Source: a virus. Taken from it: a DNA stretch of 64,000 nucleotides. The number at the start of each line of letters is the position of its first letter. Positions within the stretch are counted from its first letter, which is position 1. Where the stretch lies: the IMG/VR virus record IMGVR_UViG_3300024259_000012; one strand, written 5' to 3'. The position numbers and the translations under genes are program-made. Under the pieces are notes generated by a model. It was not told the DNA's origin, searched no databases, and saw nothing but the letters and a program-made list of their open reading frames with translations. This document shows positions 22,727-40,399 of the stretch, piece after piece.

Positions 22727-22789
22727 AACTGTTCTTCCTTTATAACCTTATATACTTATATATAAATAGTGTGTCAATTCCTCAAACGA

Positions 22790-25282
22790 TTAAAAAAATC
22801 GGTCAAGCGTGTATTTTTTATTTTGGGGCATGTCCCAATCCAATGCATCATACAATTTCTGAATCTTGCCGTTCAACAGCTTTTCATACATTTTGCCATA
22901 ATCAATATATTCATTGAGGAATGTTAAGATTTCCTTGGGGTCTTCGTAGCCCTTGTATGCAAGCGAGTTAATTTTAAATATGTTGTCCTTGAGATATACA
23001 ACCTTTATCTTATCACCGCCTCGTATTGGAAGGTATGACCCTCCGATGTTCATGTGTACCAATAAGTCATTATATGCCAAGGCAGACTTCACATGAATTG
23101 GCGTTCCCTTTTTATATTTATGAAATAACCCACCCTTTGCATTCTGATATTTTTTAAGAGTTTTGACCCCCGTTGGCCCTGCGATATCATCCACCGGTAA
23201 AAATTCAACCCCGTCTTTAAAATCAATAATACGCTCATCTATTTTATCCTTTGGAACATTGGCTAAAATATCTTCAAGTATGTTTTGCAGGTTGCCCCTG
23301 AAAGCGGATGGAAAATTACTACGAACCGTATCAAGCCCCTTAACCTCAAGCTTATCGACCTTAACACCATTGTCATTGATAATTCTCAGACCATAGCGTT
23401 TTTTGGTTACGAAAAACCCAGACTTGGCAATCAATTCTTGCTTAATCTCAAACCGGTGCGCCCCTCGAACATTGCAAAACCTCTGCGCAAAATAATTATA
23501 CGAATTATTGATATACGCCTGAACTTCACCGGCAATCAGCCGGATATTTTCGGCCATTAGCACATCATTCATTTTCTTCTTCGGAAACTTATGTTTTATA
23601 AGTGGAACCGAGCTTAAAAATAAGGAATCAGTATCAACGTATATTACATAATCCTTATCCGTTCCCAACGTGTCATTATAATAATGATTTGCAATTTTCT
23701 TGGAAAATTTAATTAAATCCACCCCCGTTGCAGTTACTGCAAGGGCATTGTCAAGGTCATAAAATCTAAATCCTGGGAGTCCCAATGTTCCATACAAAGA
23801 ATTCAATAGAATCTTTTGAATATGCTGTCTGCGATTGAAATAATCGTACTTAACATTGTCGCCCGCATCGGCATATTTCTTGGCAAGTTTTCGAAACTCT
23901 ACACGACTCTCAAACCAATCAACAAGCAGTGATGGAACCAATCCACGTTTTGTGGTTTTGTATAGTATTCCATTAGACGAAATTGAACATGGCGTTCGCT
24001 TAAAAAACGTTTTCAATTCGTCCGATGATAGATGTTGCATGGCGGCAGTTTTGTATTTAACATCATATATCGCCTCAGTGTCCCCGACAAAGTTTCCAGT
24101 ATCCCAATTTTTCACATATCCAACTTTAGTCTCTGGAGAAATATTAAGGGACATAATGATGCTTGGATACATGGACGTTAAATCCAAATCGTATATCCAA
24201 TCCCATCTACCCTTTTGGGGTGGTTGGATATATGCTCCGGCGAAGTGCGAATCTTCATTATCATTGGCCACTCGATTTGGTGCTACGATACCGTGGCGTT
24301 TTAAATACACGAGCATTGCACCTTCCAAGAAGCGGCTTGAAAAATATACGTCCTCGTATGGAACGTGCCCCAAATGGCATGTTCCTCGTGCGATTTCAAT
24401 GAAATTCAACTTATCATCAAGCAGTTTTATTAGCCTAACATCATGAATATTGTATTCCACGAATTTCTCAATATCATCTTCATAAAGCGTTACCAACGTG
24501 CCGTCATATTCAATTTTTTGGCCAACCTTTTCGTGCTGTCCAACAGCGTCCAATCGGTAGCTACTTAACTGACTGAATGTAAAATTCTTGTACAGTTTCA
24601 AATAATCTAAGCATGACACGCCCGCAATCTTATACCCACCTTTGAAATCATTCCACTCCACTATCCCGATAGGTGATAACGAATTGGCTATTTCATGGTC
24701 AACCACTTGAAGTGACCTGTTATAAATGTATGGTATATCAAATCCATCAATGTTCCATCCAGTTAAAATGGTCGGAGCCAATTCATCATAAATCTGATAG
24801 AACCTATGCAACAAATCCTTCTCAGTGTCAAACACTTCTATAGACTCATTCTCGGTTTGCGAATCATGAATGCGATTATGCTCGTCCAACACAACGGTAT
24901 AATATTTATCAGCCGCCATGTCACATAATGTTATGGCATTAATTCTATCTGAAGCGATTTCAGGATATGGAAACCCATCCGTTACCTCAACTTCAATATC
25001 AAGCGCAACAACGGTGTGGCCGGTGGACGGCTCATCATCCGCCATATATGTGTCAATTAGCACACGAGTTGCGGGCGAAACATCACTTTCAAACAAATCT
25101 TTATCAGTTTTGTTCCATTGAGTTACCCGCTGTAATTTATCACCATACAATGAAACGGCAGTGCCATTTGAACTTTTCTTGTATGCATATTTTTTATACG
25201 GAAACGTCGTATATCCATCTACATCGTCCCATAGATGAACCTTTGGACGACCGCTGTAATCCACGTAAATATTTTTATAAAT
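22790..25282 (-). CDS. Family B DNA polymerase, probable ATT start
   Basis: DIEV exo I, DLTSMYPS, KILLNSLYG, YVDTDS, KKRY; AGGAG 6 nt before ATT at 25282. Confidence 0.95.
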   Translation of the reverse strand: MYKNIYVDYSGRPKVHLWDDVDGYTTFPYKKYAYKKSSNGTAVSLYGDKLQRVTQWNKTDKDLFESDVSPATRVLIDTYMADDEPSTGHTVVALDIEVEVTDGFPYPEIASDRINAITLCDMAADKYYTVVLDEHNRIHDSQTENESIEVFDTEKDLLHRFYQIYDELAPTILTGWNIDGFDIPYIYNRSLQVVDHEIANSLSPIGIVEWNDFKGGYKIAGVSCLDYLKLYKNFTFSQLSSYRLDAVGQHEKVGQKIEYDGTLVTLYEDDIEKFVEYNIHDVRLIKLLDDKLNFIEIARGTCHLGHVPYEDVYFSSRFLEGAMLVYLKRHGIVAPNRVANDNEDSHFAGAYIQPPQKGRWDWIYDLDLTSMYPSIIMSLNISPETKVGYVKNWDTGNFVGDTEAIYDVKYKTAAMQHLSSDELKTFFKRTPCSISSNGILYKTTKRGLVPSLLVDWFESRVEFRKLAKKYADAGDNVKYDYFNRRQHIQKILLNSLYGTLGLPGFRFYDLDNALAVTATGVDLIKFSKKIANHYYNDTLGTDKDYVIYVDTDSLFLSSVPLIKHKFPKKKMNDVLMAENIRLIAGEVQAYINNSYNYFAQRFCNVRGAHRFEIKQELIAKSGFFVTKKRYGLRIINDNGVKVDKLEVKGLDTVRSNFPSAFRGNLQNILEDILANVPKDKIDERIIDFKDGVEFLPVDDIAGPTGVKTLKKYQNAKGGLFHKYKKGTPIHVKSALAYNDLLVHMNIGGSYLPIRGGDKIKVVYLKDNIFKINSLAYKGYEDPKEILTFLNEYIDYGKMYEKLLNGKIQKLYDALDWDMPQNKKYTLDRFF

Positions 25283-25291
25283 GTTCGACTC

Positions 25292-25600
25292 CTATTCGTT
25301 GATAAATAACATTCCTGGGTAGTGCTCCACAAGTATGTCATGCTGGTCAATGTCACTTTCGAAATATGTATCCATTAGTGGCAGTGATTCCAACACTGCG
25401 AGTTTATGTTCAACAATTGTTTTAAATGTAACCAGTGAGTTTGGTGCGGGGTTATAATATACAACATTATAAATGCCCTTTGAATATAATAGCTTATTAA
25501 ATTTGATAGCTTCTTCATAACTGATGCCAGTTATAATAATGTCATCATCCTTTAAAGTGTTATATTTTCCTTCCAAGCTTGGAAATGAAAATCCTCTCAT
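25292..25600 (-). CDS. Hypothetical protein (degenerate HAD-like)
   Basis: IIITG and YFESD motifs, but no DxD motif I. Confidence 0.5.
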   Translation of the reverse strand: MRGFSFPSLEGKYNTLKDDDIIITGISYEEAIKFNKLLYSKGIYNVVYYNPAPNSLVTFKTIVEHKLAVLESLPLMDTYFESDIDQHDILVEHYPGMLFINE

Positions 25601-25602
25601 TC

Positions 25603-27603
25603 TTACTCCTCGTTTTCTGGCTGTGCAACAACATCTTCAATTAAGCACGTCTGTGAATCACAGAATCGCTCAATTTCAGCTTCTTCCCCTCTGACCTTAA
25701 CAAAGCTAAGGTATTTCAAATTGCTACGTTGTTTGGCGTACTCTTCTTCTGTAATCTCTTCGTATGGCATCTGCTTGTAGGCACCTACCTCAGTCTTTGG
25801 TAAGAAGGAAATTCCCTTCAATTGATACTGAAAAAAGTTCAGTGCAAATGGCAGTTGGTGACCTTCGGTTTCTGGGTCAAATGTAATGGTTGAACTAACC
25901 TGATTGTCCGACCAATATTTTTGCATGAAAGCTGTCAATGACAACTGTTCCCACATTGATAGGTCGCTTACCGTGCGTATTCCAGCACCAACATCAACCG
26001 GAATCTCAACTACAACCGTTGACTGCTCTGAGCCAAAGGCGGGTTCAATTTTATACCCCGCATTTTTCAATGGCGTCAACAATTTACTGTGATTAGATAA
26101 CCTAACCCTGCGAATATAAAATCGTGATTCCGGATAGTGTAATCCAGGGGTGGCACCTGCTAATAATGATACTGTCCCGCTTGGCTTGATAGACGTTAAT
26201 TTAATGCTCCGTGGTATTGCAAACCAATCGGAATAAACTTCATCCCACCGTTGCAACTCTTCATACCCATGTTCTGCCCAATCCTTTAATTCATGGATGC
26301 CACGGTTCGTAATGAACTGAGCAATGCCACTCATTGAAGTTCCTATTCTGCGATTTCTGAGCATGACTCTATTTGTCTCAGGCCAATGAGTTTGTCCTAA
26401 TGTGACAGTTTTGGCATACAGATACGCATACTTTAATGTTCGTAAATAATCTTCTCTTGATGTATGATTTTCGGGAAATGTTTCAACGAGACAACAAAGC
26501 TCGTATGATTCTAACGACTGTTCAAGGCAAGGGTTCCCACCTTTTACTCGCTTGTCTTTCCAATCTTTTCCATTCCGCATACGGGAATAGCTTTGCATGT
26601 TTTCCAACCATGCAAATCCTGGCTCTCCATTGTCATTGATTCTCTCACATACTGGAGCATAATCCATGCCAAGTTCTGCGAATATAGAATTATTTGATGT
26701 CCACCCATATTCTTCTCGCTGTGGGTTTACTTCATAATTTTTAAGGTCAAGGTATTCATCATCTGTGGGGTCACCAAATACAATTTCAGCAGTGCGTCTC
26801 ACATTGCCTGCCACAACACATTTTCCAATAAGATTCATAATGTCCACAATTGTCGTAATCGTAAGCGGGCTTCCGGAATTTCCATCCAATGTTTTACGCA
26901 CAGTTTCAATAGCCTCTTCTAAGGGCTTGTAGCCGCTACTGGTGCCACCGAACCCTTTAATGGGGTCTCCCTCTGGCCTCACCAACGAATAGTCGTATTC
27001 GAGCACTGAGGTGCCTTGAAAGTAACTTTCAATCAACAGCTTCATTGCTTCAACCCAACCTTCACGAGTATCCGGAACTTGAAACGTCTCCACCTGCCTC
27101 GTTGCGTTTGGTCCTTTTACAATAATCTTACCTGCACCCTTGGTATCAAATCCAACTCCAACTCCAAGCATCGAAGCGTCCATGAGAAAGGTGAATGGCT
27201 TTGCCAAATCGTCTTTGATTGTTTCGGTGGATACAAATGCACAGTTATTGAGTGCCGCATACAAATTCTTCTCTTCAGTAATCGGCGTCCCCATTGCCCA
27301 CAATCCACGACCTGGCGGTAAAAATTTCATCTCGAAAATACGCTCATACATCTCTTGCGCCGACCTCTGCGCTTGCCAAGCGTTCCATTGCAATTGCATA
27401 CCATCAATCCATTTTTTCTGCATGTTGTATGTACCTTCAACTACACGCTTGACGGTTTCCCACCATTGTTCATTTGAACCATCTTCTTTAATACGTGAAT
27501 AGGTTCTCATGTATACCAATGCACCCAACCCGTTAAACCCAAATGGTGCTCTTTTTCTTTTATACCCATTCAGAAAATTATCTGATAAGCTAAATTTTGT
27601 CAT
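25603..27603 (-). CDS. nrdJ: Class II (adenosylcobalamin-dependent) ribonucleotide reductase, monomeric RTPR type
   Basis: FLPPGRGLW, LNNC, GNVRRTAE, GGNPCLEQ, IKPSGTVS, C-terminal FCDSQTC. Confidence 0.92.
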   Translation of the reverse strand: MTKFSLSDNFLNGYKRKRAPFGFNGLGALVYMRTYSRIKEDGSNEQWWETVKRVVEGTYNMQKKWIDGMQLQWNAWQAQRSAQEMYERIFEMKFLPPGRGLWAMGTPITEEKNLYAALNNCAFVSTETIKDDLAKPFTFLMDASMLGVGVGFDTKGAGKIIVKGPNATRQVETFQVPDTREGWVEAMKLLIESYFQGTSVLEYDYSLVRPEGDPIKGFGGTSSGYKPLEEAIETVRKTLDGNSGSPLTITTIVDIMNLIGKCVVAGNVRRTAEIVFGDPTDDEYLDLKNYEVNPQREEYGWTSNNSIFAELGMDYAPVCERINDNGEPGFAWLENMQSYSRMRNGKDWKDKRVKGGNPCLEQSLESYELCCLVETFPENHTSREDYLRTLKYAYLYAKTVTLGQTHWPETNRVMLRNRRIGTSMSGIAQFITNRGIHELKDWAEHGYEELQRWDEVYSDWFAIPRSIKLTSIKPSGTVSLLAGATPGLHYPESRFYIRRVRLSNHSKLLTPLKNAGYKIEPAFGSEQSTVVVEIPVDVGAGIRTVSDLSMWEQLSLTAFMQKYWSDNQVSSTITFDPETEGHQLPFALNFFQYQLKGISFLPKTEVGAYKQMPYEEITEEEYAKQRSNLKYLSFVKVRGEEAEIERFCDSQTCLIEDVVAQPENEE

Positions 27604-27817
27604 TATTATTTCTCCTCGTTTCTCCGCCTATTAATATTTGCTCAGCCATCTTTTTCAATCGCTGTCTATCTCGTTCTATTTGGTCTGGATGTGGAATAGA
27701 TGTCGGCTTCCCCATATATGCCTTCGGAACCGCAAGCGACTCCAACATTTTCTTTTGAAGATATTCTATATCAGATATTGGAACAACTTCATACATCCTA
27801 TAATTACACCACGCCAT
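27590..27817 (-). CDS. Small protein containing a portal-protein-like segment
   Basis: DIEYLQKKMLESLAVPKAYMG; TAATG coupling to helicase. Confidence 0.55.
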   Translation of the reverse strand: MAWCNYRMYEVVPISDIEYLQKKMLESLAVPKAYMGKPTSIPHPDQIERDRQRLKKMAEQILIGGETRRNNNDKI

Positions 27818-29196
27818 TATTCAAATCCACCCGTTTTCTCCTCATCAACAACAAGCGTTTGATATTTCTTTGACAATTCTCTACGCTTGAATTCTTCTCG
27901 GTCATCCATGCGACCCTGTTGCTTTTGACCGTTATGTGACAGCTCCTCATACATCTCAAAGATGCCCGAGTCGGTATTCATCTTCATTGGTAGTGTTATT
28001 CCGTCCCGACCAAAGCGATTTTTGATTATGTGACACCTTCCAGTGTCCGCAATCTTATCTTCAACTTTACGACTGATTGACATTACAAAATCTGCGGTCA
28101 TCACCTTTGAATAATCTTCGGCGATTTTCTCTGCACCAATTATGTCCTCTTCCAATGAACTCCTTGAGGACTGTGAAGCTGTCCAAACTGGAACTCCAAG
28201 TTCTCCGGCCATTCCACGTAAATCTTCATAAATACGTCGTAATTGAAATCTTAAATCTTTTGCTCCGGATGTGTCTCTGAGCAAATCAGCATAGTCCACG
28301 ACAATCAAATCGGGCTGTATTTGCTGTAATTCCATTTGCTTGATATGCGCCATCAGTGTAGTCACTCCGGCACCACGCTGTGGATAATATTTAACAGTCA
28401 TGTTACCGGCCAAACCACTGAGTGCCTTTGCAACATCTTCTTTGTGATATTTAATATTCGCCGTTGGGACGTGACTAAAAATAGTATCGAACCGTGTACC
28501 CACATAATGCTCATTCAATTCCAACGTATAATAAACTACCTTCAATCCGGCTCTAATCCCTGCGGCGGCGATTGCTTGAAGTATCCACGACTTACCAATA
28601 CCTGCGGGTGCAACCACAACCCCAAGTTCTCCGGCGGCCAGCCCACCGTCCATCAATTCTGAAAGTGCATTCCATGGTGTCGCTATTGTATCTCTTACAT
28701 TTTTTGTCAATCTTGCTTCCAATCCTGTTATATAATCATGTCCCAAATCTCTCGGGGCACCCGCCTTCATGGCTTCATCAATCAAACCTTTGATTGCGTC
28801 GTATTCTCCTGATTCCAACAAATCTACCGAATCAATAATTGCAGTTTTTAACACCTGATTTTTACAGAATTCAAGTATCTTTTCCTGCACAAATTCCAAG
28901 TCGGTTGCTTCCAACTGAGACCACGCCGCTTTCAGTTTCTCTATAACTGATACCTGTAAGATATCATTCTCAATATCATCGACCTGAATCTTTAATACGT
29001 CCAATGTTGGAATGTGCTTATACTTGAAAAAGTATTCTGAAATGTGCTCGACCAACCATTTGTTGCCGTCGCTGTCAAACATATCAGGATTGAGAATATC
29101 ACCTATTTGTTGAATAAAAGATGTGTCCTTCAGCAGTGATGTTACAACTTTGGTTTGGAATGAATTTCCAAATCTGCTTAGAGTTTCCTCTGACAT
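27817..29196 (-). CDS. Replicative DnaB/gp41-like helicase
   Basis: APAGIGKS, YTLEL, VVDYADLL, VWTASQ, IKNRFG. Confidence 0.92.
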   Translation of the reverse strand: MSEETLSRFGNSFQTKVVTSLLKDTSFIQQIGDILNPDMFDSDGNKWLVEHISEYFFKYKHIPTLDVLKIQVDDIENDILQVSVIEKLKAAWSQLEATDLEFVQEKILEFCKNQVLKTAIIDSVDLLESGEYDAIKGLIDEAMKAGAPRDLGHDYITGLEARLTKNVRDTIATPWNALSELMDGGLAAGELGVVVAPAGIGKSWILQAIAAAGIRAGLKVVYYTLELNEHYVGTRFDTIFSHVPTANIKYHKEDVAKALSGLAGNMTVKYYPQRGAGVTTLMAHIKQMELQQIQPDLIVVDYADLLRDTSGAKDLRFQLRRIYEDLRGMAGELGVPVWTASQSSRSSLEEDIIGAEKIAEDYSKVMTADFVMSISRKVEDKIADTGRCHIIKNRFGRDGITLPMKMNTDSGIFEMYEELSHNGQKQQGRMDDREEFKRRELSKKYQTLVVDEEKTGGFE

Positions 29197-29200
29197 ACCA

Positions 29201-29812
29201 TTACCTATTTTTTACGTTGCACATGGTGGTTGCTTTTTGTCGCTCACACTCAAATACAAATCGCCAAATTCGTTTTACCTTCTGCACATCAACCAACTTA
29301 ATCAAATACCAGTTCCTAAGTGCCATATCGGTTAGCACGCCGGTAACATCACCTATAGTTGGGCGGGATGACCGCCAAAAATTTATGAAGTGTTGCTCCA
29401 TAATTCCATTCAAACAGTTGACCCCGACCACAGGAAATGTAAATACTAAACCGGCTTTGGGCTTCATCATTTCAAAGACAACAGGAAAAAATAGGTCTGG
29501 ATACCCATATGAATCAATATCAATAAAATCATATTTTTTTCGCTCTCCACGCAATTTGTAAATTGCATCGAAACTGCTCCCAAATTCTTCCTTGGTCATC
29601 GGCGTAACCTTACCATGCTCTTGATAATATTTTGTTAAATTTCCCTGCCCCGCAAAGACTTCCAAAATGTTGCCATGTATCAAATCTAAGTGATTATCTA
29701 ACTGCGCCATCTTTTCATCTGGGTGGTGGTACTCATCCTCGTTTCCCGCTTGCTTAGCTCGGGTTTCCTTGTGTGTCTCTTTAGTGTGCCCTACCATCGG
29801 TATCCTCTTCAA
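29201..29812 (-). CDS. Class I SAM-dependent methyltransferase-like protein
   Basis: ILEVFAGQG motif I; YDFIDIDSYGYP. Confidence 0.65.
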   Translation of the reverse strand: MKRIPMVGHTKETHKETRAKQAGNEDEYHHPDEKMAQLDNHLDLIHGNILEVFAGQGNLTKYYQEHGKVTPMTKEEFGSSFDAIYKLRGERKKYDFIDIDSYGYPDLFFPVVFEMMKPKAGLVFTFPVVGVNCLNGIMEQHFINFWRSSRPTIGDVTGVLTDMALRNWYLIKLVDVQKVKRIWRFVFECERQKATTMCNVKNR

Positions 29813-30194
29813 GCACGTCTAAAATTTTACGTGCGTATACTCTATCGTATTCTTTAATTTCGTCTGTTAATTCTTCATATGGAACCCAATAGGATTCCCA
29901 GTTTTTTAATTTATCAGAAATTTTCTTTTTCATTCTTAGTGATGCCCTATTATTCTGCCCGTCGGGGAGTGAATCATGTGCTTCCTGTAATAATTCTGCA
30001 ATTGACTTGCTCCAAGCTTCCCACTGTTGGTGTTCTAAATCTGATAATTTTTCTAACATATCAGCACTTTTTAATAACTCTATAACGTCGGTAAATTTAA
30101 CATATGCTCCTCCGCCATACTTGCCAAATTCTGTTTCATCGGTGCCGCCGTAAACATCACTAACACCGTGCATTCCATATCTTTGTAGTTTCAT
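29781..30194 (-). CDS. Hypothetical protein with RyR-like motif
   Basis: EHQQW...VPYEELTDEIKEYDR. Confidence 0.55.
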   Translation of the reverse strand: MKLQRYGMHGVSDVYGGTDETEFGKYGGGAYVKFTDVIELLKSADMLEKLSDLEHQQWEAWSKSIAELLQEAHDSLPDGQNNRASLRMKKKISDKLKNWESYWVPYEELTDEIKEYDRVYARKILDVLEEDTDGRAH

Positions 30195-30245
30195 AACATT
30201 TCTCCTTGTTTCTTTGCGTATAAATACTTATCATATATACTGTTA

Positions 30246-31898
30246 TTAAACGACCTTAAATTCATTTTTCCATTTATTTTTCGGACTGAAAAACAATCGA
30301 GCAATGTTGCTGTCCAATGCGTATGACATTGAGAAGTCTTTGTTATTTCGTGTTGACCTCCCCAATCCCTGTATGATTTTGTATATGGTCATTAGCTCAT
30401 ATATGTCAGGATAATTATCAAATATGTATCGTATCCTCTTATCACCCAATGACGGGTATGGTGCCTTCGTAAGAATTTGAAACCGTGATTCATCGTCAGG
30501 CAAATCAATACCCTCAAATAACGACGGTGATATCAAAACCGACGGCTTGCCGTTTGTCTTGTGGTCATGCACAGAATCAGCCAATAAGCTTCCACGCTCA
30601 TGCTCAACCAAGTTTCCCGCCCTGCGTTTTCTAATTACATTCGCCACCTGCTCGGTAAGCTTAAATGATGATGTCAATATTATACCATTCACATCAGCAT
30701 GTTCTTTGATAATGTCCGCTACAACGTTTCCGACCTGATTCACAAAGGCGGGGTTGTTCAAATTTTTATAATTGTAACTACCGTGCTTCAAAAATGCTAC
30801 ACTCTTACTCTCCTGCTTGAACACCGGCGATGACTTAATAAATTTTATGTCACTGCGTGGGATTCTCAATGTCTGTGAAATAAATGAAGCATCAATCGTA
30901 GCAGACATAAATAATGAATAATCTGTTGTGCGAAGACGCTTGAACATGCTACCAACAAAAATTGGAGTTATGATGAGTCCATTATCTTGAATGTCGATTG
31001 CATATTCATTTTTCTGTGTTTGCACTTCAAAAATATTACCGGATATGCTCTTAAACATCTTGATAATTTTAGCATAAGATGTATACGCTTTCATATTATT
31101 TGCACCAAAATATCGCTTGGCCTGTTCCTCATATTCTGCGATGATTTCCTCACATAGCTGTTTCATGGCTTCAATGTATGTGCCATAATTTGACAGGGTG
31201 ACCCTGCCGGTGTGCAACGCCGATGAAAATTTATCAATGCGTGGAGCGAAGCCGTCAAATCCCTCAGTCTGGAAGGTATTCATCCGAGACTTCCAAAATT
31301 TCAAATTGGACATGGTGAGCTTAAGTGCCATATGATTGCTAAACGTGTCGTTAATTAAATGCGCTTCGTCAAATACTGCTATTTGCCGTTGTTGAAATTG
31401 TTGGTTGTACATCGCTGATATGAAGTAGTATGAATAATTTGTGATAAAATGGCTCGCCTTGTATTTGCGCTCCTTTAATTCTTTAAACTCACATGCATCA
31501 CATTTCAGCCTATTGACACCTTTCAATTCTTTCATAATGCAGTGCTCAGCGGTGTCCTGCAATACAGCACACCCATAGTTGTTGGCACCCTTCACCGTAA
31601 CAAAGGCATTTCCATACTTTGAAAATGATTCCCTATACTGCTTGGTCAGCGTATTTGTGCTCATTAAAATGTATGAGCTTGGTGCAGGAACGTCTGTTAA
31701 TTTTGCTATACATTCCGCTACAATCACAGCAACGATAGATTTACCGGTTCCCGTTGGGGCGGACAGCACCACATATTCCTTCTTTTCGTCAATATATGCC
31801 ACTACAATATCATTGACTAAAGACAACTGATTATCTCTTGGCTTCAAATCAAATTTTCTGAAGCAATCCAGTATCAATTTTTCATATTTAATCTTCAT
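30246..31898 (-). CDS. DinG/XPD-like SF2 helicase
   Basis: APTGTGKS, four Cys (possible Fe-S), DEAH, MSAT, EGIDLPD, QGLGRSTR. Confidence 0.88.
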   Translation of the reverse strand: MKIKYEKLILDCFRKFDLKPRDNQLSLVNDIVVAYIDEKKEYVVLSAPTGTGKSIVAVIVAECIAKLTDVPAPSSYILMSTNTLTKQYRESFSKYGNAFVTVKGANNYGCAVLQDTAEHCIMKELKGVNRLKCDACEFKELKERKYKASHFITNYSYYFISAMYNQQFQQRQIAVFDEAHLINDTFSNHMALKLTMSNLKFWKSRMNTFQTEGFDGFAPRIDKFSSALHTGRVTLSNYGTYIEAMKQLCEEIIAEYEEQAKRYFGANNMKAYTSYAKIIKMFKSISGNIFEVQTQKNEYAIDIQDNGLIITPIFVGSMFKRLRTTDYSLFMSATIDASFISQTLRIPRSDIKFIKSSPVFKQESKSVAFLKHGSYNYKNLNNPAFVNQVGNVVADIIKEHADVNGIILTSSFKLTEQVANVIRKRRAGNLVEHERGSLLADSVHDHKTNGKPSVLISPSLFEGIDLPDDESRFQILTKAPYPSLGDKRIRYIFDNYPDIYELMTIYKIIQGLGRSTRNNKDFSMSYALDSNIARLFFSPKNKWKNEFKVV

Positions 31899-32070
31899 CG
31901 TATAACCTTTTCATTCGCTCCTGCTTGCCCTTTTCGAGCTTTTTGCGTTGATACGTTTCTCTCGCCTTGCGAAGGATTTCACTTTTATTTCGTTCGTAAT
32001 GTTCCGCTTGTCATTTGCGCTGAGCCTTTCGGCGTTCCGCATCTGACTTATATTTAAGCTTTCTACCCAT
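31888..32070 (-). CDS. Small basic protein (60 aa), 1 in-frame TGA
   Basis: MGRKLKYKSDAERRKAQRK*QAEHYERNK; TGA at 32011-32013. Confidence 0.65.
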
Positions 32071-33115
32071 TATGCTCTTTCGCAAATTTGTCCAACCCAA
32101 TAAAACACATGGTTAGTCACGTTTCCAAATTTGGCAATGCTTGATGGATTTGGTCTTCAAGTACCATCTTCTCAAATGCAAATTTATTCAGCGTTGGTAT
32201 GTCACCCTTGACCAAGCCTCTCAGTGTAGATTTGGCGTGCGAGCTTATGTCAACATCATGCAATTGCATCAATTTATAATTGAGACCAAGCACATCCTTG
32301 CTGTTCAATATGTTCTCATGTACAGCCAACGAGCCGGTCTCAGCCGCTTCAAATAAATCATTCACCGTAAATACTGCAGGTTCAACAATTTCAGGAAACC
32401 TCTTAACCAGCGTTTTCAGTCCGACGCCTTTGACGCCAGGAATATTATCAGATTTGTCACCCTCAAGAATTCTATACATCAAAAAATTGTGTGGTGGAAT
32501 TTCATAATCCCGTTGCACAGCAAGTGGATTGTATAAAACCTTTTTGGTTGGAGACCACACGGAAATCCGGTCATTTACAAGTTGTAAGAAATCCTTGTCC
32601 GTGCTCATTATAACTATATTACTTTCGGTCAGCAACTGCTTGGAAATATAAGCCATTGAATCATCGGCTTCTATATTTTCAATCGTCACAATTGTCATTG
32701 GAAGATGTTTGAGATATTCCAATGCTCGCTGAATCTGCATGTACATGGACTGTTTTTCATCCTCAACAGAACTGAATTCATCCGACCTATTTACTTTTGA
32801 TGCAATCTTGCGATTTGCTTTATATTCGGGAAATAGTTTCTTGCGCCGCTTTGACCCGCCCTTACCATCAAATGTGATAATGACACGAGTTGGTTGTATG
32901 GTTTTTATTGCATACCCAACCGAGCGTAAAAATCCCGTGATGCCACCCACATGAACCCCATTTACATTGGTAGTTGGGGTCACCGCAAAAGCACGGATAA
33001 ATGTGTTTAGACCATCTATTATTAAAACCTTGCTGTCAGTTTCAAGGCTGTCAGCGTTTTCATGCTCATCTTTTAACTGAGTCATGATATTATTAAAAAT
33101 CTTTCTATCAATCAT
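32063..33115 (-). CDS. 5'-3' exonuclease / RNase H-like flap nuclease, 1 TGA near C-terminus
   Basis: IIDG, FDGKGG, YKANR, EADD, STDKD, GDKSDNIPGV; NLET*LTMCF TGA at 32117, next stop TAG 32063. Confidence 0.9.
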
Positions 33116-33264
33116 ATTATACCCGTTTCCAAGACAAACGAACGGGTATTTTATACTTTTTTATGTAACCATATATTTATACAAGAACATACAACCTAAT
33201 AAAATACCCTATTTCGTTTATCACCTAAGTAGATTTTCTTAGCCGCCAAGCCTTCTACTTAATT

Positions 33265-34356
33265 TTATTCATCAACGATTTCAATATCCTCTTCATCATG
33301 GACTTCGGCATCGCTTTTGTATTCCATTATTAAAGCACCACATATCAAATCATATATGTACTCTTCAAGACCTTCATTCTCTGCAAGAGCTTCTTTAAAT
33401 TTCGCAGGGGTGAATTTAATCACCTTATCGTTGAACTCAACAACATACGAATTTTTCTCTTTCTTACACAATTTGTAGTCTTTTAGCACCACAAGCCAAC
33501 TCGCATAATCATCTATACCAGAATCAAAATACATGTGGAACTCCGCTTTTCTTAACGGTGGACCCAATCTGTTTTTTGTGATTTCACACTTGGTTTTCAT
33601 ACCAACGATTTCTTCACTTTTCTTAATTCTTCCAAGATTTGAAAGACGGATGCGAACCGATGCGTGGAATGGCAATGCTTTACCACCCGATGTTGTATAT
33701 TTATCACCGAACATTGCACCTAATTTGTCACGCAATTGATTAGTAAAAACTATTGCAATTTTTTCTTTGCTGATTAAATTGGTAATTTTTCTCATAGCCT
33801 TAGACATGATAATTGCTTTTGCCGTAGCCCAGCCTTCCTTATCAAAATCTTGCTCCATTTCTACCTTTGTGGATGCGCCCGCCACGCTATCAACTAAAAT
33901 AGCAACAAGCCTGTCGCTATCACCTTCACGAACCTTGGCAATAATGTCTTCAATTGTTTCAAAAACATCTTCCATAGTTTCCGCTGGGACATACACCATC
34001 TCTTGTGTATTAACACCAATTGCATTTAAAAATTGTCGGCTAACCGCAGATTCAGTATCAATGTATACTGCGATTCCACCTTTTTTCTGACACTCTGCCA
34101 GAATGTGTGCGCCAACCAAACTTTTACCGGACGCTTCAAGGCCATTAATTTCACATATTCTACCAACTGGTATTCCACCATGTGGCATATTTGCAATGCG
34201 TAAATCTAATATACTTGAGCCGGTTGAAATTCAATCGGAAATATCAGCGGGATTTTCATCATCAAGAAAATGTGCAACCTTTAGTCCGCCACCTGAATTC
34301 AAGGAATCTGCAATTGAATTAACAAGCACATCTTCCCTATCTATTGTATCTGTCAT
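33265..34356 (-). CDS. RecA/UvsX-like recombinase, 1 in-frame TGA
   Basis: Start MTDTIDRE at 34356 after GGAG; ISD*ISTGS TGA at 34231-34233; GLEASGKS, DSVA, NQLR, SGGKAL. Confidence 0.92.
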
Positions 34357-34377
34357 ATTTTTCTCCATCATGTAATT

Positions 34378-34399
34378 GGGGCGAAGTTGCCTCCGCCCC
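34378..34399. other. GC-rich hairpin between SSB and recombinase genes
   Basis: ggggcg...cgcccc inverted repeat; no clear U-tract on the coding strand. Confidence 0.5.
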
Positions 34400-34416
34400 T
34401 GTTATTACTTTACCGT

Positions 34417-35196
34417 TTATGCTGTTGCCTTGGCCTTGTTGAACAGGTCATCGAAATCAGCGGCGGTTGCAGACTGGGATGTAACCTCAGCCTGTTGTGG
34501 TGATGGAGTGTCGGTTACTTCAGTATCTTCTTCTTCATCCGTTGGATTCAGATATTGGACTAAAGCATCCTTCAAGTCATCATATGTTAATTCCTGATAG
34601 ACTTCCCTAATATCCTTTTGGTTATTAAGTAGTGCATCCAACTGAGCTTTGTTCTCAGTCAATGGTGTCTGATTAGGTTTAACACGGATTGTTGTTTTTG
34701 GAAAGTTTGCGCCGGTTTCTTCCTTTGGAATGAATTTCACCGTGATGTCACGACCGTTTAACGGGTCTGAAATATCACCATAATCTTCATCAAGAAAGAA
34801 TTCCATTAGCTCAGTATTAACTAACTTTCCAAAGCCCCAAAACTTAACACCTTGAGCTTCTTCACCACGAACAACTACAGGTAGAAATGTACGTGTTTTG
34901 GCCTCAAGTTTACGAGCCATTTGATAAGAATCCTTATCTCCGTTTGCTCTTAGTTTAATTGCGAATTCTTCGATTGGGTCAGGACGACCGAATGAAAGGG
35001 GTGACAAGTATGTTTTTCCACCAATGTCATAGTGGAATTGCATTTCAATAAATGGATTATCCGGTACGTGCTTATATGGTACTACACGAATGACCGTTTC
35101 ACCATTAGTTGGTTTTCACAGGCTTGTGGTTTTGTTTGACTCGCTGTTTAATTGTGTTAGTTTTTTACGAAGTGCATCAAGATTGATTGCTCCCAT
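34417..35196 (-). CDS. Single-stranded DNA-binding protein (gp32-like), 1 in-frame TGA
   Basis: MGAINLDALRKKL...TSL*KPTNGETVIRVVPY; TGA at 35116-35118; KFWGFGK, YGDISDP..GRDI, acidic tail DFDDLF. Confidence 0.88.
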
Positions 35197-35346
35197 GGGT
35201 GTTCTCCTCTTTTGTTATTTGTCATTTGTCTTTTGTCGATGGCCATTAGTTGTCTTGCAACCTTTTCCATACATTAATATATAGCATATATATTCGCCAA
35301 ATGCACGTTTATTTTGGGTTTTTTTGAATTATTTTTGAATTATTTT

Positions 35347-35565
35347 TTAGTAAATCTGGGATAGGATGCTTTCATAAACAAAGTCAGCGTCCTCGTTAAC
35401 CCAATCAAGCTCCTGCTCAGTTAGGTCACGTCCGTCTATACTCGCCTGTGAAATGAACGCATCACAATAATCTGGGGCGTCTTTGGAATTGATATCTTCT
35501 ACATAAACATCTTCTAATTTTGATAAGTCTACCACGAACCATGTTCTCCTATAATTACACCACAT
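35347..35565 (-). CDS. Hypothetical acidic protein
   Basis: DAPDYCDAFIS...LTEQELD; own sigma70-like promoter upstream; start may be GTG at 35535. Confidence 0.6.
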   Translation of the reverse strand: MWCNYRRTWFVVDLSKLEDVYVEDINSKDAPDYCDAFISQASIDGRDLTEQELDWVNEDADFVYESILSQIY

Positions 35566-35589
35566 ATGTTGTCATTTCCCTCACACCCT

Positions 35590-35618
35590 ATAATACAACA
35601 TTTTTCTGCGATATGCAA
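35590..35618 (-). promoter_or_regulatory. Sigma70-like promoter TTGCAT-17-TATTAT
   Basis: Same hexamers and spacing as 41207-41235; A-rich upstream tract. Confidence 0.65.
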
Positions 35619-35637
35619 GAACTATTTTGAATTATTT

Positions 35638-35847
35638 TTATACAATCCATTCTTCATCTACTCGTGTTTTGCCACATTTAACGCATGTGTAAGTAACCGC
35701 AAATCCACGCTTCCTTACATACGTCCCAAACAGCGACACATAGCCGTACGAACGTTCCAATGAACGGGAGTCAGTTTTCTCATAGATGTGTGAATAGCAC
35801 CTATTTTTGAACCAATTTAGTCCCAACATGATTTCGTCCATTCCCAT
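35638..35847 (-). CDS. Small hypothetical protein
   Basis: C-x-x-H...CVKCG. Confidence 0.45.
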   Translation of the reverse strand: MGMDEIMLGLNWFKNRCYSHIYEKTDSRSLERSYGYVSLFGTYVRKRGFAVTYTCVKCGKTRVDEEWIV

Positions 35848-36161
35848 TGACCATCTTCACGGAGTTGAATTCGCACGTCACCTTCGGAGTAATCCTTCTG
35901 ACCTTCAAAATATGCATATTCCATCGCTTTGCGAACGCTTGCTTTGATGGTTGTTGAATTTGAGGCATCTACTTCTATGGCCGATGACTCGCTGATAATA
36001 TCATCAGTTACTATAATTGTAGTTACCGGTGCCGTAGACGTGAGCGTACCATTAATGATTCCAATATGGTCGTGCGACCCATCACATCCAGCACTCTGCG
36101 CAGTTATCGCCGATGTGAACCCTATAAAGCGTGCTATCAGGCTCGTCCCATTCATAACCAT
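35817..36161 (-). CDS. Hypothetical protein (start uncertain)
   Basis: C-terminal AMEYAYFEGQKD...GDVRI...WTKSCWD looks protein-like. Confidence 0.45.
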   Translation of the reverse strand: MVMNGTSLIARFIGFTSAITAQSAGCDGSHDHIGIINGTLTSTAPVTTIIVTDDIISESSAIEVDASNSTTIKASVRKAMEYAYFEGQKDYSEGDVRIQLREDGQWEWTKSCWD

Positions 36162-36270
36162 TGTGCTTATTGATGTGATGTCCTGGCTCTATTTCTTCTC
36201 GGATTTTCTTGTCAACTCTCGCTTTATGAAAGTCCGACAAGTCCCTATAATCGGTCATTGTCATTGTGCA
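36082..36270 (-). CDS. Small hypothetical protein ending at or reading through TGA
   Basis: MTMTDYRDL...CAECWM; next TAA is 10 codons after the TGA. Confidence 0.35.
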   Translation of the reverse strand, partial: CTMTMTDYRDLSDFHKARVDKKIREEIEPGHHINKHNGYEWDEPDSTLYRVHIGDNCAECWM

Positions 36271-36517
36271 CTCCATTTTTAGGCTTCTCAAGCAACTGCT
36301 TCACAACATCAACAATTGCCAATAGTTCATCTATTTCCTCAAACTTCAAAACTTGGTCGCCCTCATCATTCAGTTGAGTGAGCTTAATAATTTCACCGCC
36401 GCCCTCATCATCCAATGCGACCTCAGTTACGAGGTCGCCGAATATTGGACTTGTTTCAGACATTGGGAACACATTAATTTGTATCACCTTTGATTTATAT
36501 TTTTTAGACATCTTCAA
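36245..36517 (-). CDS. Hypothetical protein
   Basis: VALDDEGGGEIIKLTQ. Confidence 0.55.
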   Translation of the reverse strand: MKMSKKYKSKVIQINVFPMSETSPIFGDLVTEVALDDEGGGEIIKLTQLNDEGDQVLKFEEIDELLAIVDVVKQLLEKPKNGVHNDNDRL

Positions 36518-36992
36518 CCTTCGTTAAAGCAACACCATCTGGGTGCTCATGAGAAAGCTTCGCAAGCTTGCCCACACGGGTGCTAAGTCTAATCACCATT
36601 CGCATGATGTATAGTCCTGCCCAAACTGCTCCGATGAGTAAGAATAGCGGCCATATCAAGAATACGATAATCCAACTCACTCCGCCGCCAAGGCCAACCA
36701 ACATCAAACCAAGAGCGTCCCATGTATATTGTGTAGGTGCCCCTGAGTCTGAATAATTTCCATAGGGTTCAACGCCCATTTGCAGTCCGTATTCATCCTT
36801 GAAAAACCACTTGAACGGGGTGGCGTAAATTGAAACCTGCTTCCACCAATTTGGTGCAAAGGCACGGTCACCATCATAAAGATATTGTTTCAGTTTTGAC
36901 AGCATTGGCAACACTATGGTCAAAAATGCTAAAACTGTGGTGGACACTATTATACCATACATACCAAGTGTATCATAAATTTCAAATAACAT
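36504..36992 (-). CDS. Membrane protein, paralog of 36994..37467
   Basis: About 3 hydrophobic segments; shared motifs KLxQYxxDG, PxWW, WPL, HxHP. Confidence 0.7.
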   Translation of the reverse strand: MLFEIYDTLGMYGIIVSTTVLAFLTIVLPMLSKLKQYLYDGDRAFAPNWWKQVSIYATPFKWFFKDEYGLQMGVEPYGNYSDSGAPTQYTWDALGLMLVGLGGGVSWIIVFLIWPLFLLIGAVWAGLYIMRMVIRLSTRVGKLAKLSHEHPDGVALTKVEDV

Positions 36993-36993
36993 A

Positions 36994-37467
36994 TTAATCT
37001 CCTACCATTGTGTGTTCAACATCCTTTGGATGCTTGTGTGCAAATTGTGCGAGCTTGACAACTTTCTTGGTGAGTCTGGTGACTGCACGTAAAAGGTACA
37101 GGGCACCCCATAATGACAAGCATACAATCACAAGTGGCCATAAAAGAATTACAGCCGCCCAAGAAATCGCATTTAACATACTTACAAACATTTCCTCACC
37201 GTCCCAGCTTGCGGGCGATGGCGTGTCCGTATCATCATAATCATACTTTGGACTGACCCCATAATACTTATCGTCCTCTATCCACTTATACGGAAATACA
37301 AATCGTGAGAGGGGAACCCACCATTTTGGAACGTGGGCATAGGTGCCATCATTGATATACTGTACAAGCTTGGTGGCTATTGGCACCAACATTGTCATGA
37401 ATATCATTGCTGACCCCGCTACAATAGCGGCGTATTCAGCTACGGCTTTGTAAATTTCTTGGTACAT
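36994..37467 (-). CDS. Membrane protein, paralog of 36504..36992
   Basis: Same motifs; AAGGAG SD. Confidence 0.7.
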   Translation of the reverse strand: MYQEIYKAVAEYAAIVAGSAMIFMTMLVPIATKLVQYINDGTYAHVPKWWVPLSRFVFPYKWIEDDKYYGVSPKYDYDDTDTPSPASWDGEEMFVSMLNAISWAAVILLWPLVIVCLSLWGALYLLRAVTRLTKKVVKLAQFAHKHPKDVEHTMVGD

Positions 37468-37598
37468 GTTGTTTTCTCCTTTATTTGTTTTAGCAAGTCG
37501 CTTGCCTCTGTCAACCCATAGTTGAAAAGCATTTCTTCAAGCGGTGCTATCAGTTTTTTCAATTTCCGAACTTGATGTGGGCTTAGTCCGCTTTTCAT
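37440..37598 (-). CDS. Small hypothetical protein (52 aa)
   Basis: MKSGLSPHQVRKLKKL... fills the gap. Confidence 0.4.
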   Translation of the reverse strand: MKSGLSPHQVRKLKKLIAPLEEMLFNYGLTEASDLLKQIKEKTTCTKKFTKP

Positions 37599-37609
37599 TT
37601 CATACCACG

Positions 37610-38560
37610 TTAGAATTGGCCGTACTCCACTTGGAAAGTTGGTATTCCAACTACCTCTCTCCAGTGTTCAATCATTTGGTCACGGTCATCCAAAATGAAC
37701 AACACATTGTATTTGCCCTTGATTTCAGCTTCATACAATTCATCCTTGATAATTGAATCTCTCCTTGAATCGTTTGGTGCTCTCATAAATAAGTTGTCAC
37801 CATACTTTACAGTAAAGGCGGTCTTATCTCTGAACCACCGAAGTGTTTCGTCACGGGCGTTTCCATCACGACCTGATAAGAATATGATTTTAACTCGTTC
37901 ATGCTGTTCATCCCATGGTAACATATCATTGTGAAATTGATATGTTTCTAATATATGTTGAACTGGGGCATTCACATCATCCTCGTACACAGCAGACCAA
38001 TCAAATGGACTTCTACCAGTCATCTTAGCGATGGTTCCGTCAATGTCAACCAAGATACATTTTGGCAATGACTCATCTTGGTCAATGTAAAATGACTCAT
38101 TCTTTGTTGGTGGATAGTATGTCTCAGGAACCAACAAAAGCTTTCCTGGCTTGATATACTTGTTATAGAACGTATCTACCACATCCGGTGGAACTGCATC
38201 TTCACGGTTGTCATTCCGCCTGTGAGCCTCTTTCAAGGTCACTTCAACCATTGTTTCAACTACCTTCACATCACCAACTTTTTGAGCGATGGCGTGCCAT
38301 TCGTTGACAGTCTTTTGACGCAAGTTTGTATCATCGGTTACAACATTCAACCCCTTTTTCAAAGCGTCAAACGCCATAGCTTGGGTTGCCTTCGTGATTA
38401 TGGTCTCATTTTTCTGAGTGAAAACTGACATGTTCATCATTTTTCTAAACTCATCACGATTGATTCTAACCCAAGATTTTGGGTTTTTAGCAACAAATTT
38501 ACGTGCTTCTGTTGATTTTCCGGATGCCGGAATTCCTCTATATATTCTAAGTGTCTGCAT
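37610..38560 (-). CDS. pseT: Polynucleotide 5'-kinase/3'-phosphatase (T4 PseT-like)
   Basis: GIPASGKST P-loop, RINRD, DIDGT, SGR, DDRDQ. Confidence 0.9.
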   Translation of the reverse strand: MQTLRIYRGIPASGKSTEARKFVAKNPKSWVRINRDEFRKMMNMSVFTQKNETIITKATQAMAFDALKKGLNVVTDDTNLRQKTVNEWHAIAQKVGDVKVVETMVEVTLKEAHRRNDNREDAVPPDVVDTFYNKYIKPGKLLLVPETYYPPTKNESFYIDQDESLPKCILVDIDGTIAKMTGRSPFDWSAVYEDDVNAPVQHILETYQFHNDMLPWDEQHERVKIIFLSGRDGNARDETLRWFRDKTAFTVKYGDNLFMRAPNDSRRDSIIKDELYEAEIKGKYNVLFILDDRDQMIEHWREVVGIPTFQVEYGQF

Positions 38561-38783
38561 TTATAATTCCCGCCTCCAAATCCTTAATATATTCAACCGC
38601 CAAGTCAATGGCTTTCATGGCACACCCCTGTCTTGACTGTGTGCCGTCTTTATGTGTCCGCAACTCACCGTTGCCATCCATTGGGTCGTATTCAAATTCT
38701 GCGAGTGGAATCTTTGAATCTTCACTCTCAACTATAATAGTGTCGTTAGCTTCAAAATCCCACCAATATTTACTTGACATCAT
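38547..38783 (-). CDS. Hypothetical protein
   Basis: AAGGAG SD; ATGA overlap with upstream gene. Confidence 0.55.
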   Translation of the reverse strand: MMSSKYWWDFEANDTIIVESEDSKIPLAEFEYDPMDGNGELRTHKDGTQSRQGCAMKAIDLAVEYIKDLEAGIINADT

Positions 38784-40175: not shown

Positions 40176-40179
40176 AATG

Positions 40180-40399
40180 TTACCAATCTATTTTATTTGA
40201 TTGTATTGAGGCAATTCCCCATATACATGTGACTGCGATATCTTCCAATTCCGCAATAATTTTCTCATGGTCATTTGCATGAATTTCATCTTTGAATTCA
40301 CGAACTTCCTCATCTAAAACTCCCGAGATTTCATGAATGGTCTACAGCTACAATCGCATATTCTCGGATTGTTATTTCCTCGTGTTTACATTCACCCAT
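40180..40399 (-). pseudogene. Frame-disrupted MazG-like (NTP pyrophosphatase) remnant
   Basis: HEISGVLDEEVREFKDE...IIAELEDIAV lies in a frame with no start codon, +1 relative to the ATG at 40399. Confidence 0.5.

Follow-up and report, generated by a model that had tools for sequence, protein, structure and literature searches.

The 64,000-nucleotide stretch of viral DNA analyzed here (IMG/VR record IMGVR_UViG_3300024259_000012; hereafter the window) is part of a T4-like (Straboviridae-type) myovirus. All the marks of this group are present: a gp43-type DNA polymerase (PolB), a gp32-type SSB, a clamp loader, and a contractile tail sheath and tube. The functions of the named replication and tail genes (Table 1) are supported by Pfam and PHROGs. 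The recombinase matches Pfam RecA over residues 37 to 287 (4e-59), and the exonuclease was recognized through 5_3_exonuc_N and 5_3_exonuc. The SSB was missed by Pfam and had no match in a PDB sequence search; PHROGs provided its identity, with phrog_1192/224 matching residues 5 to 242, the TGA site included. The small open reading frame (ORF) between the exonuclease and the helicase had no family match in PHROGs.

Functions equivalent to those of the T4-type module (gp43 polymerase, gp32 SSB, UvsX, gp41 helicase, gp44 clamp loader, and RNase H) lie in a single co-oriented block of the window. Unlike the T4 module, this block has a class II ribonucleotide reductase (RNR), recoded SSB and RecA genes, and a recombinase with signatures of the RecA family but no clear ones of UvsX. 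PolB is 44% identical to that of Microcystis phage Mel-JY01 and about 31% identical to those of T4-like cyanophages; megablast of the window against GenBank phages gave no match, nor did scanning viral contigs with PolB as the sole protein.

Table 1. Replication, early-type, and tail features of the window, with their Trp codons
Feature	Coordinates	Strand	Details
Family B DNA polymerase (gp43 type)	22790..25264	(-)	824 aa; TGG 9, TGA 0; Pfam DNA_pol_B and exonuclease domains
Class II (B12-type) ribonucleotide reductase	25603..27603	(-)	666 aa; TGG 16, TGA 0; Pfam RNR_Alpha, RNR-II_ins_dom, Ribonuc_red_lgC
DnaB-type replicative helicase	27817..29196	(-)	459 aa; TGG 5, TGA 0; Pfam DnaB_C
TATTTATA motif (coding strand)	30219..30226	(-)	25 nt before first gene of DnaB-RNR-PolB operon
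DEAD/ResIII-type helicase	30246..31898	(-)	550 aa from ATG 31898; TGG 2, TGA 0; Pfam
Small basic conserved ORF	31888..32070	(-)	60 aa; overlaps exonuclease end and helicase start; sole Trp codon TGA (32011-32013)
5'-3' exonuclease (RNase H/FEN type)	32063..33115	(-)	350 aa; 2 Trp codons, last TGA, codon 333 (32117-32119)
RecA/UvsX-type recombinase	33265..34371	(-)	368 aa; 3 Trp codons, first TGA, codon 47 (34231-34233)
gp32-type SSB	34417..35196	(-)	259 aa; 2 Trp codons, first TGA, codon 27 (35116-35118)
Early-type block	35347..41201	(-)	aaRS-like, ATP-grasp, HD, PNK, and membrane genes; sigma70-like promoters; internal TGA 0
Probable TGA stops of two early-type genes	39300-39302, 38780-38782	(-)	within block 35347..41201
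820-aa tail or baseplate protein	44106..46568	(-)	TGA 6/21 Trp codons
796-aa baseplate-region protein	46889..49279	(-)	TGG 12, TGA 0; no family match
935-aa protein	49279..52086	(-)	weak tape-measure and lysozyme-like matches; TGA 3/16 Trp codons
Tail tube	55277..55765	(-)	phrog_4542; TGG 6, TGA 0
Tail sheath	57710..60058	(-)	782 aa; phrog_23 3.5e-74; 10 Trp codons, first TGA, codon 49 (59912-59914)

The lineage and its genetic code

In-frame TGA codons lie inside conserved genes of the window, opposite Trp in the homologs, as defines a TGA-recoded phage, and their alignment with the TGG of other genomes at conserved Trp columns shows by homology that TGA encodes Trp. We compared the window with two recoded relatives, REL (JBGCVJ010308632.1; 80.8 kb), assembled by seven stepwise contig searches, and G3 (39 kb). 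TGA is a minority Trp codon throughout, at 12% in the window and about 25% in the two relatives. The wider relatives keep the standard code, so that the recoding is a derived trait of a small lineage. Among 80 standard-code loci covering the RecA neighborhood, the codon corresponding to SSB codon 27 is TGG in 77 of 79 and that corresponding to exonuclease codon 333 is TGG in 71; RecA position 47 is occupied by F in 55 loci and by W in 24. Conserved alignments were free of in-frame TGA in 78 of these 80 loci and in the outgroups L009 and L172 to L182, in which TGA serves as a stop (7 of the 28 stops of L009) and is found inside no conserved gene. An ARAGORN search returned no tRNA in the window, the 80.8 kb of REL, the 39 kb of G3, L011, or L013, and a suppressor tRNA was thus unseen in these stretches.

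The window resembles the TGA-recoded gut phages Agate, Jade, Sapphire, and Topaz (Borges et al., bioRxiv 10.1101/2021.08.26.457843) in its in-frame TGA codons, its standard-code relatives, and the concentration of recoding in structural genes. Unlike these gut phages, it is T4-like, has relatives that include marine (Tara) metagenome contigs, shows a low TGA share (12%), and comes with no suppressor tRNA in the stretches searched.

The early-type block tiles compactly under code 11, with a terminator-like hairpin upstream (41219-41240), and its Trp codons are never TGA, be it in the window (0/19), REL (0/23), or G3 (0/7). A scan for the sigma70 consensus gave 64 matches versus 56.5 in shuffles, no better than expected. 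The stops of the 84 curated window genes are TAA in 69 cases, TAG in 12, and TGA in 3, all 3 of them in early-type genes. The relatives' proteins terminate at or slightly before the two putative TGA stops of the block. Gene counts and stop positions point to an early region in the standard code next to late regions that are recoded, and we infer that the code may switch during infection. Alternatively, the host itself might read UGA as Trp (code 4), in which case there would be no switch, and TGA would be a rare synonymous codon spread by codon-usage selection and mutation alone. The absence of a suppressor tRNA from every stretch searched would suit this explanation, as would the merely 8 to 15 residues that read-through of the early-type TGA stops would add. 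We nonetheless consider it quite improbable, because TGA is a stop in relatives at 55 to 64% protein identity and accounts for only 9 to 25% of Trp codons versus 58 to 69% for A-ending two-fold codons. Moreover, TGA occupies 0 of 44 Trp codons in the early-type genes, the TGA stops of the window coincide with the ends of the relatives' proteins, and the 5' skew described below is consistent with costly decoding.

The motif TATTTATA also precedes the sheath, the tube, and other genes, as well as their orthologs in REL and G3. We regard it as a putative promoter motif, different from the TATAAATA of T4 late promoters. The leaders of the SSB and exonuclease genes are conserved and, unlike those above, fall outside the TATTTATA class.

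Distribution of TGA among genes

TGA occupies 38 of the 318 Trp codons of the curated set of 84 genes, and its spread is uneven. A single rate is rejected by per-gene permutation (p=0.0006) and when the genes are divided into five modules (p=0.00005): structural genes carry 21/104, early-type genes 0/44, the SSB-to-helicase segment 4/10, the DnaB-RNR-PolB operon 0/38, and the rest 13/122. Per-gene rates also differ in REL (p=0.004), with TGA at 28/73 Trp codons in structural genes versus 20/123 in the rest (p=0.001). In-frame TGAs lying in N-terminal extensions of the ORFs ending at 30246, 8860, 41270, 35347, 56886, 25292, 19875, and 20053 were discarded as not genic, as were those of ORFs 40193-40399 and 7490-7681.

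The sequence-only reading had described the replication and tail modules as split, each into TGA-free and TGA-bearing genes. Our recount agrees with the underlying observations: PolB (9), RNR (16), and DnaB (5) use TGG at all 30 Trp codons; SSB, RecA, and the exonuclease have one TGA each, at codons 27, 47, and 333, read as Trp by homology; the tube (6 TGG) and the 796-aa protein (12 TGG) are TGA-free, and the sheath, the 935-aa protein, and the 820-aa protein carry 1, 3, and 6 TGAs. The probability that PolB, RNR, and DnaB are all TGA-free is 0.017, and their contrast with SSB, RecA, and the exonuclease (0/30 versus 3/7) gives p=0.0045. For the whole operon (22790-30194, 0/38), the probability is 0.005, uncorrected. 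This value and the contrast leave room for some lineage-specific selection, beyond the two general rules of placement proposed below.

The effect of the named split is modest once its post hoc choice is allowed for, because 12% of permutations contained a TGA-free stretch at least as long as the longest one observed, 42 Trp codons (p=0.12). In addition, per-gene heterogeneity gave p=0.13 in a conservative, ortholog-aligned set (18/195 TGA). One could attribute everything to chance, with one TGA rate and the split as a post hoc pattern. These two p values and the absence of the split from REL are what such an explanation would predict; however, it is already largely refuted by the per-gene and module tests on the full set, by the per-gene test in REL, and by the first-Trp bias found in three genomes, and we give it very little credence.

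A gp32-type SSB is required for all T4-type replication, as is gp32 in T4. A single TGA in SSB is thus enough to make the entire pathway depend on TGA decoding, which leaves a TGA-free set of Pol, RNR, and DnaB without a gating logic of its own. Recoding that varies across replication genes has already been described (bioRxiv 10.1101/2021.08.26.457843).

Conservation and position of TGA codons

The replication split, real in the window, is for the most part absent from the two closest relatives. The expectation that the same orthologs would be TGA-free or TGA-bearing in related genomes failed on both sides. RNR has TGA at W76, W332, and W348 in REL and at least one, at W48, in G3, so that the sites differ; DnaB has TGA at its first Trp (W47) in REL and TGG in G3; the tube has TGA at W147 in REL and at W104 in G3; and the 796-aa ortholog carries 5 TGAs at conserved Trp positions in REL (7/14 Trp codons overall) and 3 in G3. 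Conversely, exonuclease codon 333 is TGG in both relatives, and the gene is without TGA in either. Accordingly, the replication contrast is 4/29 versus 2/8 in REL (p=0.59). All eight aligned Trp codons of PolB are TGG in REL, a count biased by the discovery of REL through a PolB intact under code 11; the G3 contig stops short of PolB. At the gene level, TGA is also found in REL for 9/11 TGA-bearing window genes and for 11/31 TGA-free ones.

Other genes vary as well. TGA makes up 10/17 Trp codons of the 820-aa ortholog in REL and 7/16 in the aligned part of G3. The frame of the 60-aa ORF is kept in the relatives, its Trp being TGA in REL and TGG in G3. The DEAD-type helicase ortholog has TGA at W591 in G3; in REL it starts at the equivalent Met, with a true in-frame stop upstream. 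The TGA at 31911-31913, upstream of this helicase in the window, lies outside the gene, which starts at ATG 31898, and the 60-aa ORF runs there in another frame.

TGA favors the first tryptophan of a gene in all three genomes. The first Trp is TGA in 9/13 informative genes of the window versus 4.4 expected (p=0.007), in 16/22 of REL versus 9 (p=0.001), and in 8/13 of G3 versus 4.6 (p=0.04), the tests being not fully independent since the genomes are related. Several of these TGAs, such as REL DnaB W47, are lineage specific. TGA makes up 28% of Trp codons within codons 1 to 30 but 8% beyond codon 250, and its share is 37 to 53% at the first conserved Trp versus 10 to 25% at later ones; position along the gene and being first are statistically inseparable in these data. 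A-ending Lys, Glu, and Gln codons reach 58 to 69%, and the first-Trp TGA share is lower but near. These codon shares fit a weak counter-selection that grows along the gene. Furthermore, T is depleted as the base after TGA (3/37).

Some TGA sites do persist. Among the genes named in the split, only the TGAs at SSB codon 27, RecA codon 47, and sheath codon 49 are kept in the window, REL, and G3; together with 60541-codon 193 and 41270-codon 114, five TGAs are common to the three genomes, whereas independence would predict 0.9 and a correction for the synonymous baseline about 1.9. Such numbers would, for their part, also suit selected gates.

Under this last explanation, single early TGAs in SSB, RecA, the sheath, and two unknown structural proteins would be kept by selection, so that replication, recombination, and tail assembly await the reading of UGA as Trp, with other TGAs left to drift. 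The five sites hold identical positions amid variable flanks, synonymous sites being otherwise nearly randomized among the three genomes. Four of the five are first Trp codons, so that a product terminated there would have only 26 to about 100 residues; the TGA-free early-type genes with their TGA stops and the distinct SSB and exonuclease leaders point the same way. However, the four shared first-Trp TGAs compare with 1.75 expected under independence and about 3.7 once this bias and a phylogenetic inflation like that of Lys, Glu, and Gln codons are modeled, and the frequency of first-Trp TGA lies under the neutral A/G expectation. The search pattern RSWPEFE brought up sheath relatives having W at position 49, and the sheath of another recoded clade carries TGG at W49 and TGA at W133, with the caveat that a pattern requiring TGG at W49 had served in part to find these loci. 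Retention of the SSB, RecA, and sheath TGAs is accounted for by the general first-Trp bias; having modeled the first-Trp class, we no longer regard the fact that SSB and RecA keep their TGAs as proof of selection. Selected gates of this kind thus seem unlikely to us. Of the earlier proposal that a few parts per pathway are gated, the non-uniform TGA usage, the shared SSB, RecA, and sheath TGAs, and the TGA-free early-type genes stand; the supposedly code-independent set is not conserved, and retention equals the first-Trp expectation.

Proposed placement rules and their meaning

We moderately favor the explanation that two general rules, gene class and position, set the placement of TGA, with no replication-specific design. 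By the first, early-type genes have no internal TGA and apparently use TGA as a stop, and structural genes carry the most. By the second, TGA is tolerated chiefly near the 5' end of a gene, most of all when it is the gene's first Trp codon. This probably reflects a competition between decoding and termination by a release factor, a failed read being costlier further along the gene. The two-rule explanation would make the SSB and RecA codons old first-Trp TGAs under both rules, and the TGA-free DnaB-RNR-PolB operon, tube, and 796-aa protein may be a snapshot of a TGA-poor lineage, eroded in the relatives. With no suppressor tRNA in the stretches searched, the decoding mechanism and the release-factor competition are putative.

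In codon-usage theory, the position-dependent cost of nonsense errors (e.g., PLoS Genet 2026, PMC13271495) predicts that termination-prone codons are tolerated early and avoided late in a gene. Along genes, TGA drops from 28% to 8% of Trp codons, in agreement with this prediction, and the two may be linked. Unlike the codons considered there (PMC13271495), the error-prone codon here is a reassigned stop and not a slow sense codon. A text search of the gut phage study (bioRxiv 10.1101/2021.08.26.457843) found no mention of a first-Trp or 5' bias.

The first Trp codon could itself be a selected checkpoint, an idea that we regard as tentative and rather doubtful. A single early UGA in SSB, RecA, the sheath, and other non-early genes would then cheaply delay whole pathways until UGA means Trp, and such checkpoints would recur independently in each lineage, as in DnaB of REL.

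Recoded phages are thought to time late functions by a reassigned stop, and a T4-like lineage now joins this picture. The study of such phages by Borges et al. reportedly appeared later in Nature Microbiology (2022). Over the three genomes compared here, the absence of TGA from early-type genes, its enrichment in structural genes, and its preference for the first Trp are stable, and the TGA-free status of the polymerase-operon and tail genes is unstable. The first-Trp bias could serve to separate regulation by selected gates from mere cost avoidance. If the first Trp codon were indeed a checkpoint, the recoding of a stop codon would act as a regulatory device based on position and would be more than a property of gene modules.

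Sense of TGA and reach of the recoding

The genes of the window, all on the minus strand (GC ~0.40), are uninterrupted when TGA is taken as a sense codon. Pfam and PHROGs place in the stretch 22790-35196 a family B polymerase (PolB), a class II ribonucleotide reductase (RNR), DnaB-type and DEAD-type helicases, a 5'-3' exonuclease, a RecA-family recombinase and a gp32-type SSB, with tail sheath, tube and baseplate genes upstream; a clamp-loader gene and numerous sugar-modifying genes follow downstream. The virus is a T4-like myovirus, its PolB sharing 44% identity with the Microcystis phage Mel-JY01 enzyme and ~31% with those of T4-like cyanophages. At the head of the early-type block, a 186-aa protein matches phrog_4806 "histidyl tRNA synthetase" (5.6e-36).

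Two relatives were compared: REL, the nearest (NCBI contig JBGCVJ010308632.1; PolB 72% identical), found via its polymerase and walked for 80.8 kb, and G3 (IMGVR_UViG_3300035698_011925; 39 kb). Alignment columns with conserved Trp pair TGA of one genome with TGG of another, e.g., at exonuclease codon 333, DnaB 47 and RNR 76, 332 and 348. Among 80 more distant standard-code loci, SSB codon 27 is TGG in 77 and exonuclease 333 in 71, while RecA 47 encodes F in 55 of the loci and W in 24. Homology shows the sense of TGA to be tryptophan. Since these loci use the standard code and TGA serves as an ordinary stop in the outgroups, the recoding is derived and restricted to a small lineage. Among the sheath relatives, another recoded group (L011-L014, L091-L094 and L099; sheath 70-72% identical) has TGA at sheath W133 and baseplate-hub W136; its sheath W49 is TGG. 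TGA also stands in two otherwise standard-looking loci, L216 and L264, at the position matching codon 114 of gene 41270-41719. No suppressor tRNA was found in the window, REL (80.8 kb) or G3 (39 kb).

Uneven use of TGA in the window

The sequence-only reading had set TGA-free PolB, RNR and DnaB against SSB, RecA/UvsX and exonuclease with one TGA each, and its per-gene TGA/TGG counts proved exact on recounting. Our curated set holds 84 genes and 318 Trp codons, 38 of them TGA, spread over 23 genes; several other in-frame TGAs were rejected as genic, lying within spurious N-terminal extensions as judged by ortholog start sites. A conserved 60-aa basic ORF with its own TGA overlaps, in another frame, the exonuclease stop and the DEAD-type helicase start; code-11 gene callers miss it in the window and in REL, where its single Trp codon is TGA.

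A single TGA rate was rejected in the curated set, both per gene (p=0.0006) and over five modules (p=0.00005): structural, 21/104 Trp codons; early-type, 0/44; SSB-to-helicase, 4/10; DnaB-RNR-PolB operon (30194 to 22790), 0/38; rest, 13/122. Per-gene heterogeneity stood in this set but not in the conservative ortholog-aligned one (p=0.13). The chance of zero TGA is 0.017 for PolB, RNR and DnaB together and 0.005 for the whole operon, and the longest TGA-free run was equalled in 12% of permutations of the curated set. The split is present and modestly unusual; the strongest non-uniformity is that of the early-type and structural genes.

The TATTTATA motif lies 18-47 nt ahead of the start codons of sheath and tube, of several small structural genes, of the clamp loader and of the leading gene in the DnaB-RNR-PolB operon, among others; the REL and G3 orthologs have it too. 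The motif is probably a promoter of the phage's own, distinct from the T4 late motif, TATAAATA. Genes behind sigma70-like promoters have no TGA inside; three have TGA as their stop, at the point where the relatives' proteins terminate, and in one of them the stop is tandem. The promoters of 40641-41201 and 57181-57615 end 5 nt ahead of the ATG, suggesting that transcripts there are leaderless. Conservation of the SSB 5' leader is strong across the window, REL and G3, with repeated AATGACAA units ahead of the ribosome-binding site; on the model of T4 gene 32, whose autoregulation is known, the leader may be an operator for autoregulation.

Coordinates of promoters, leader and other elements in the window
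Feature	Positions	Strand	Detail
TATTTATA motif	60086-60093, 60523-60530, 55805-55812, 54454-54461, 52596-52603	minus (coding)	
TATTTATA motif, further sites	30219-30226, 22761-22768, 17315-17322, 14133-14140	minus (coding)	
Sigma70-like promoters	41202-41240, 57616-57660, 35536-35637		TTGCAT or TTGCAC, 17 nt, TATTAT or TATATT
SSB 5' leader	35197-35346		
Tandem stop	57178-57183		TGATGA
60-aa ORF	31888-32070		
186-aa protein gene	40641-41201		
Homing-endonuclease-like gene	53578-54282		phrog_655/314

The proposed split in relatives

The TGA share is 48/196 in REL and 27/107 in G3, about twice that of the window. The TGA-free set was not kept: four of the five genes named as such (RNR, DnaB, tube and the 796-aa protein) carry TGA in relatives. 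The contrast between the two replication groups, 0/30 versus 3/7 in the window (p=0.0045), becomes 4/29 versus 2/8 in REL (p=0.59). PolB is TGA-free in REL too, a biased point given that REL itself was found through an intact PolB; the G3 contig ends before PolB.

TGA in orthologous genes of the three genomes
Gene	Window	REL	G3
RNR	none	W76, W332, W348	W48
DnaB	none	first Trp (W47)	none
Tube	none	1 (W147)	1 (W104)
796-aa protein	none	5-7	3
Exonuclease	333	TGG	TGG
DEAD-type helicase	none	none	W591

At gene level, 9 of the 11 TGA-bearing window genes carry TGA in REL too (p=0.013), an overlap that comes largely from shared ancestral sites; the three genomes are related to each other, and some searches were skewed to intact or TGG-bearing genes. 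The REL RNR gene (L002:10699-14157) is split by a ~1-kb insert that has a DUF7487 ORF preceded by a TATTTATA motif and resembles an intron or homing-endonuclease insertion. Between RNR and PolB, REL has dUTPase, PTPS, radical SAM and GTP cyclohydrolase I genes (7-deazaguanine-type pathway) that the window lacks. The homing-endonuclease-like gene within the window's tail module has one TGA, and its top REL match sits elsewhere in that genome.

The preprint by Borges and colleagues reports phages recoded at TGA or TAG in which structural and lysis genes are recoded, and states that the DNA replication machinery uses the alternative code to a variable degree, extensively so in Lak phages (bioRxiv 10.1101/2021.08.26.457843). 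Variable recoding of replication genes is already known, and the present case adds a T4-like lineage of the same kind.

First-tryptophan bias and decoding of UGA

Five TGAs occupy identical positions in the window, REL and G3 (SSB27, RecA47, sheath49, codon 193 of 60541-61335 and codon 114 of 41270-41719), against 0.9 expected under independence, and the synonymous sites flanking them vary. For Lys, Glu and Gln codons, shared ancestry gives twice the matches expected, which raises the expectation for TGA to ~1.9. In all three genomes TGA is far more frequent at the first Trp of a gene than at those that follow: it stands first in 9 of 13 informative window genes (4.4 expected; p=0.007), 16 of 22 in REL (9 expected; p=0.001) and 8 of 13 in G3 (4.6 expected; p=0.04). 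TGA is avoided at the last Trp of genes, and in the window its share drops from 28% within codons 1-30 to 8% past codon 250. In non-early genes, the first conserved Trp is TGA in 37%, 53% and 47% of cases in the three genomes, and later Trp codons in 10%, 25% and 18%. Given these frequencies by class, the 4 first-Trp TGAs that are shared compare with 1.75 to 3.7 expected; the general pattern explains the five shared TGAs, and the conservation in SSB and RecA therefore adds little to it. The rival reading, that first-Trp TGAs are selected gates, seems to us rather unlikely, though its chance is far from negligible. In the parts of the recoded-phage literature searched, no description of a first-Trp or 5' TGA bias was found.

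TGA is disfavored as a Trp codon: between the window and REL, TGG stands opposite TGA at 20% of conserved sites, against 60% for AAG opposite AAA. In the whole window, in-frame TGA (37 cases) is followed by A 18, G 10, C 6 and T 3 times, and TGG by A 80, G 102, T 56 and C 26 times (p=0.035); T is depleted after TGA. Decoding of UGA may be conditional or incomplete and compete with termination, so that a failed read would be cheap near the gene start and costly further along; this would yield the 5' skew with no need for pathway design. The same cost logic, premature termination being costlier later in a gene, appears in codon-usage theory on nonsense errors (PMC13271495).

Under such decoding, gating would be a by-product, any TGA-bearing gene having to wait for decoding. 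A gp32-type SSB is required for all T4-type replication, and a single TGA in SSB would therefore render the pathway TGA-dependent regardless of the codons used in Pol, RNR and DnaB. This dependence may be the reason that genes of the latter type have been free to gain TGAs in relatives.
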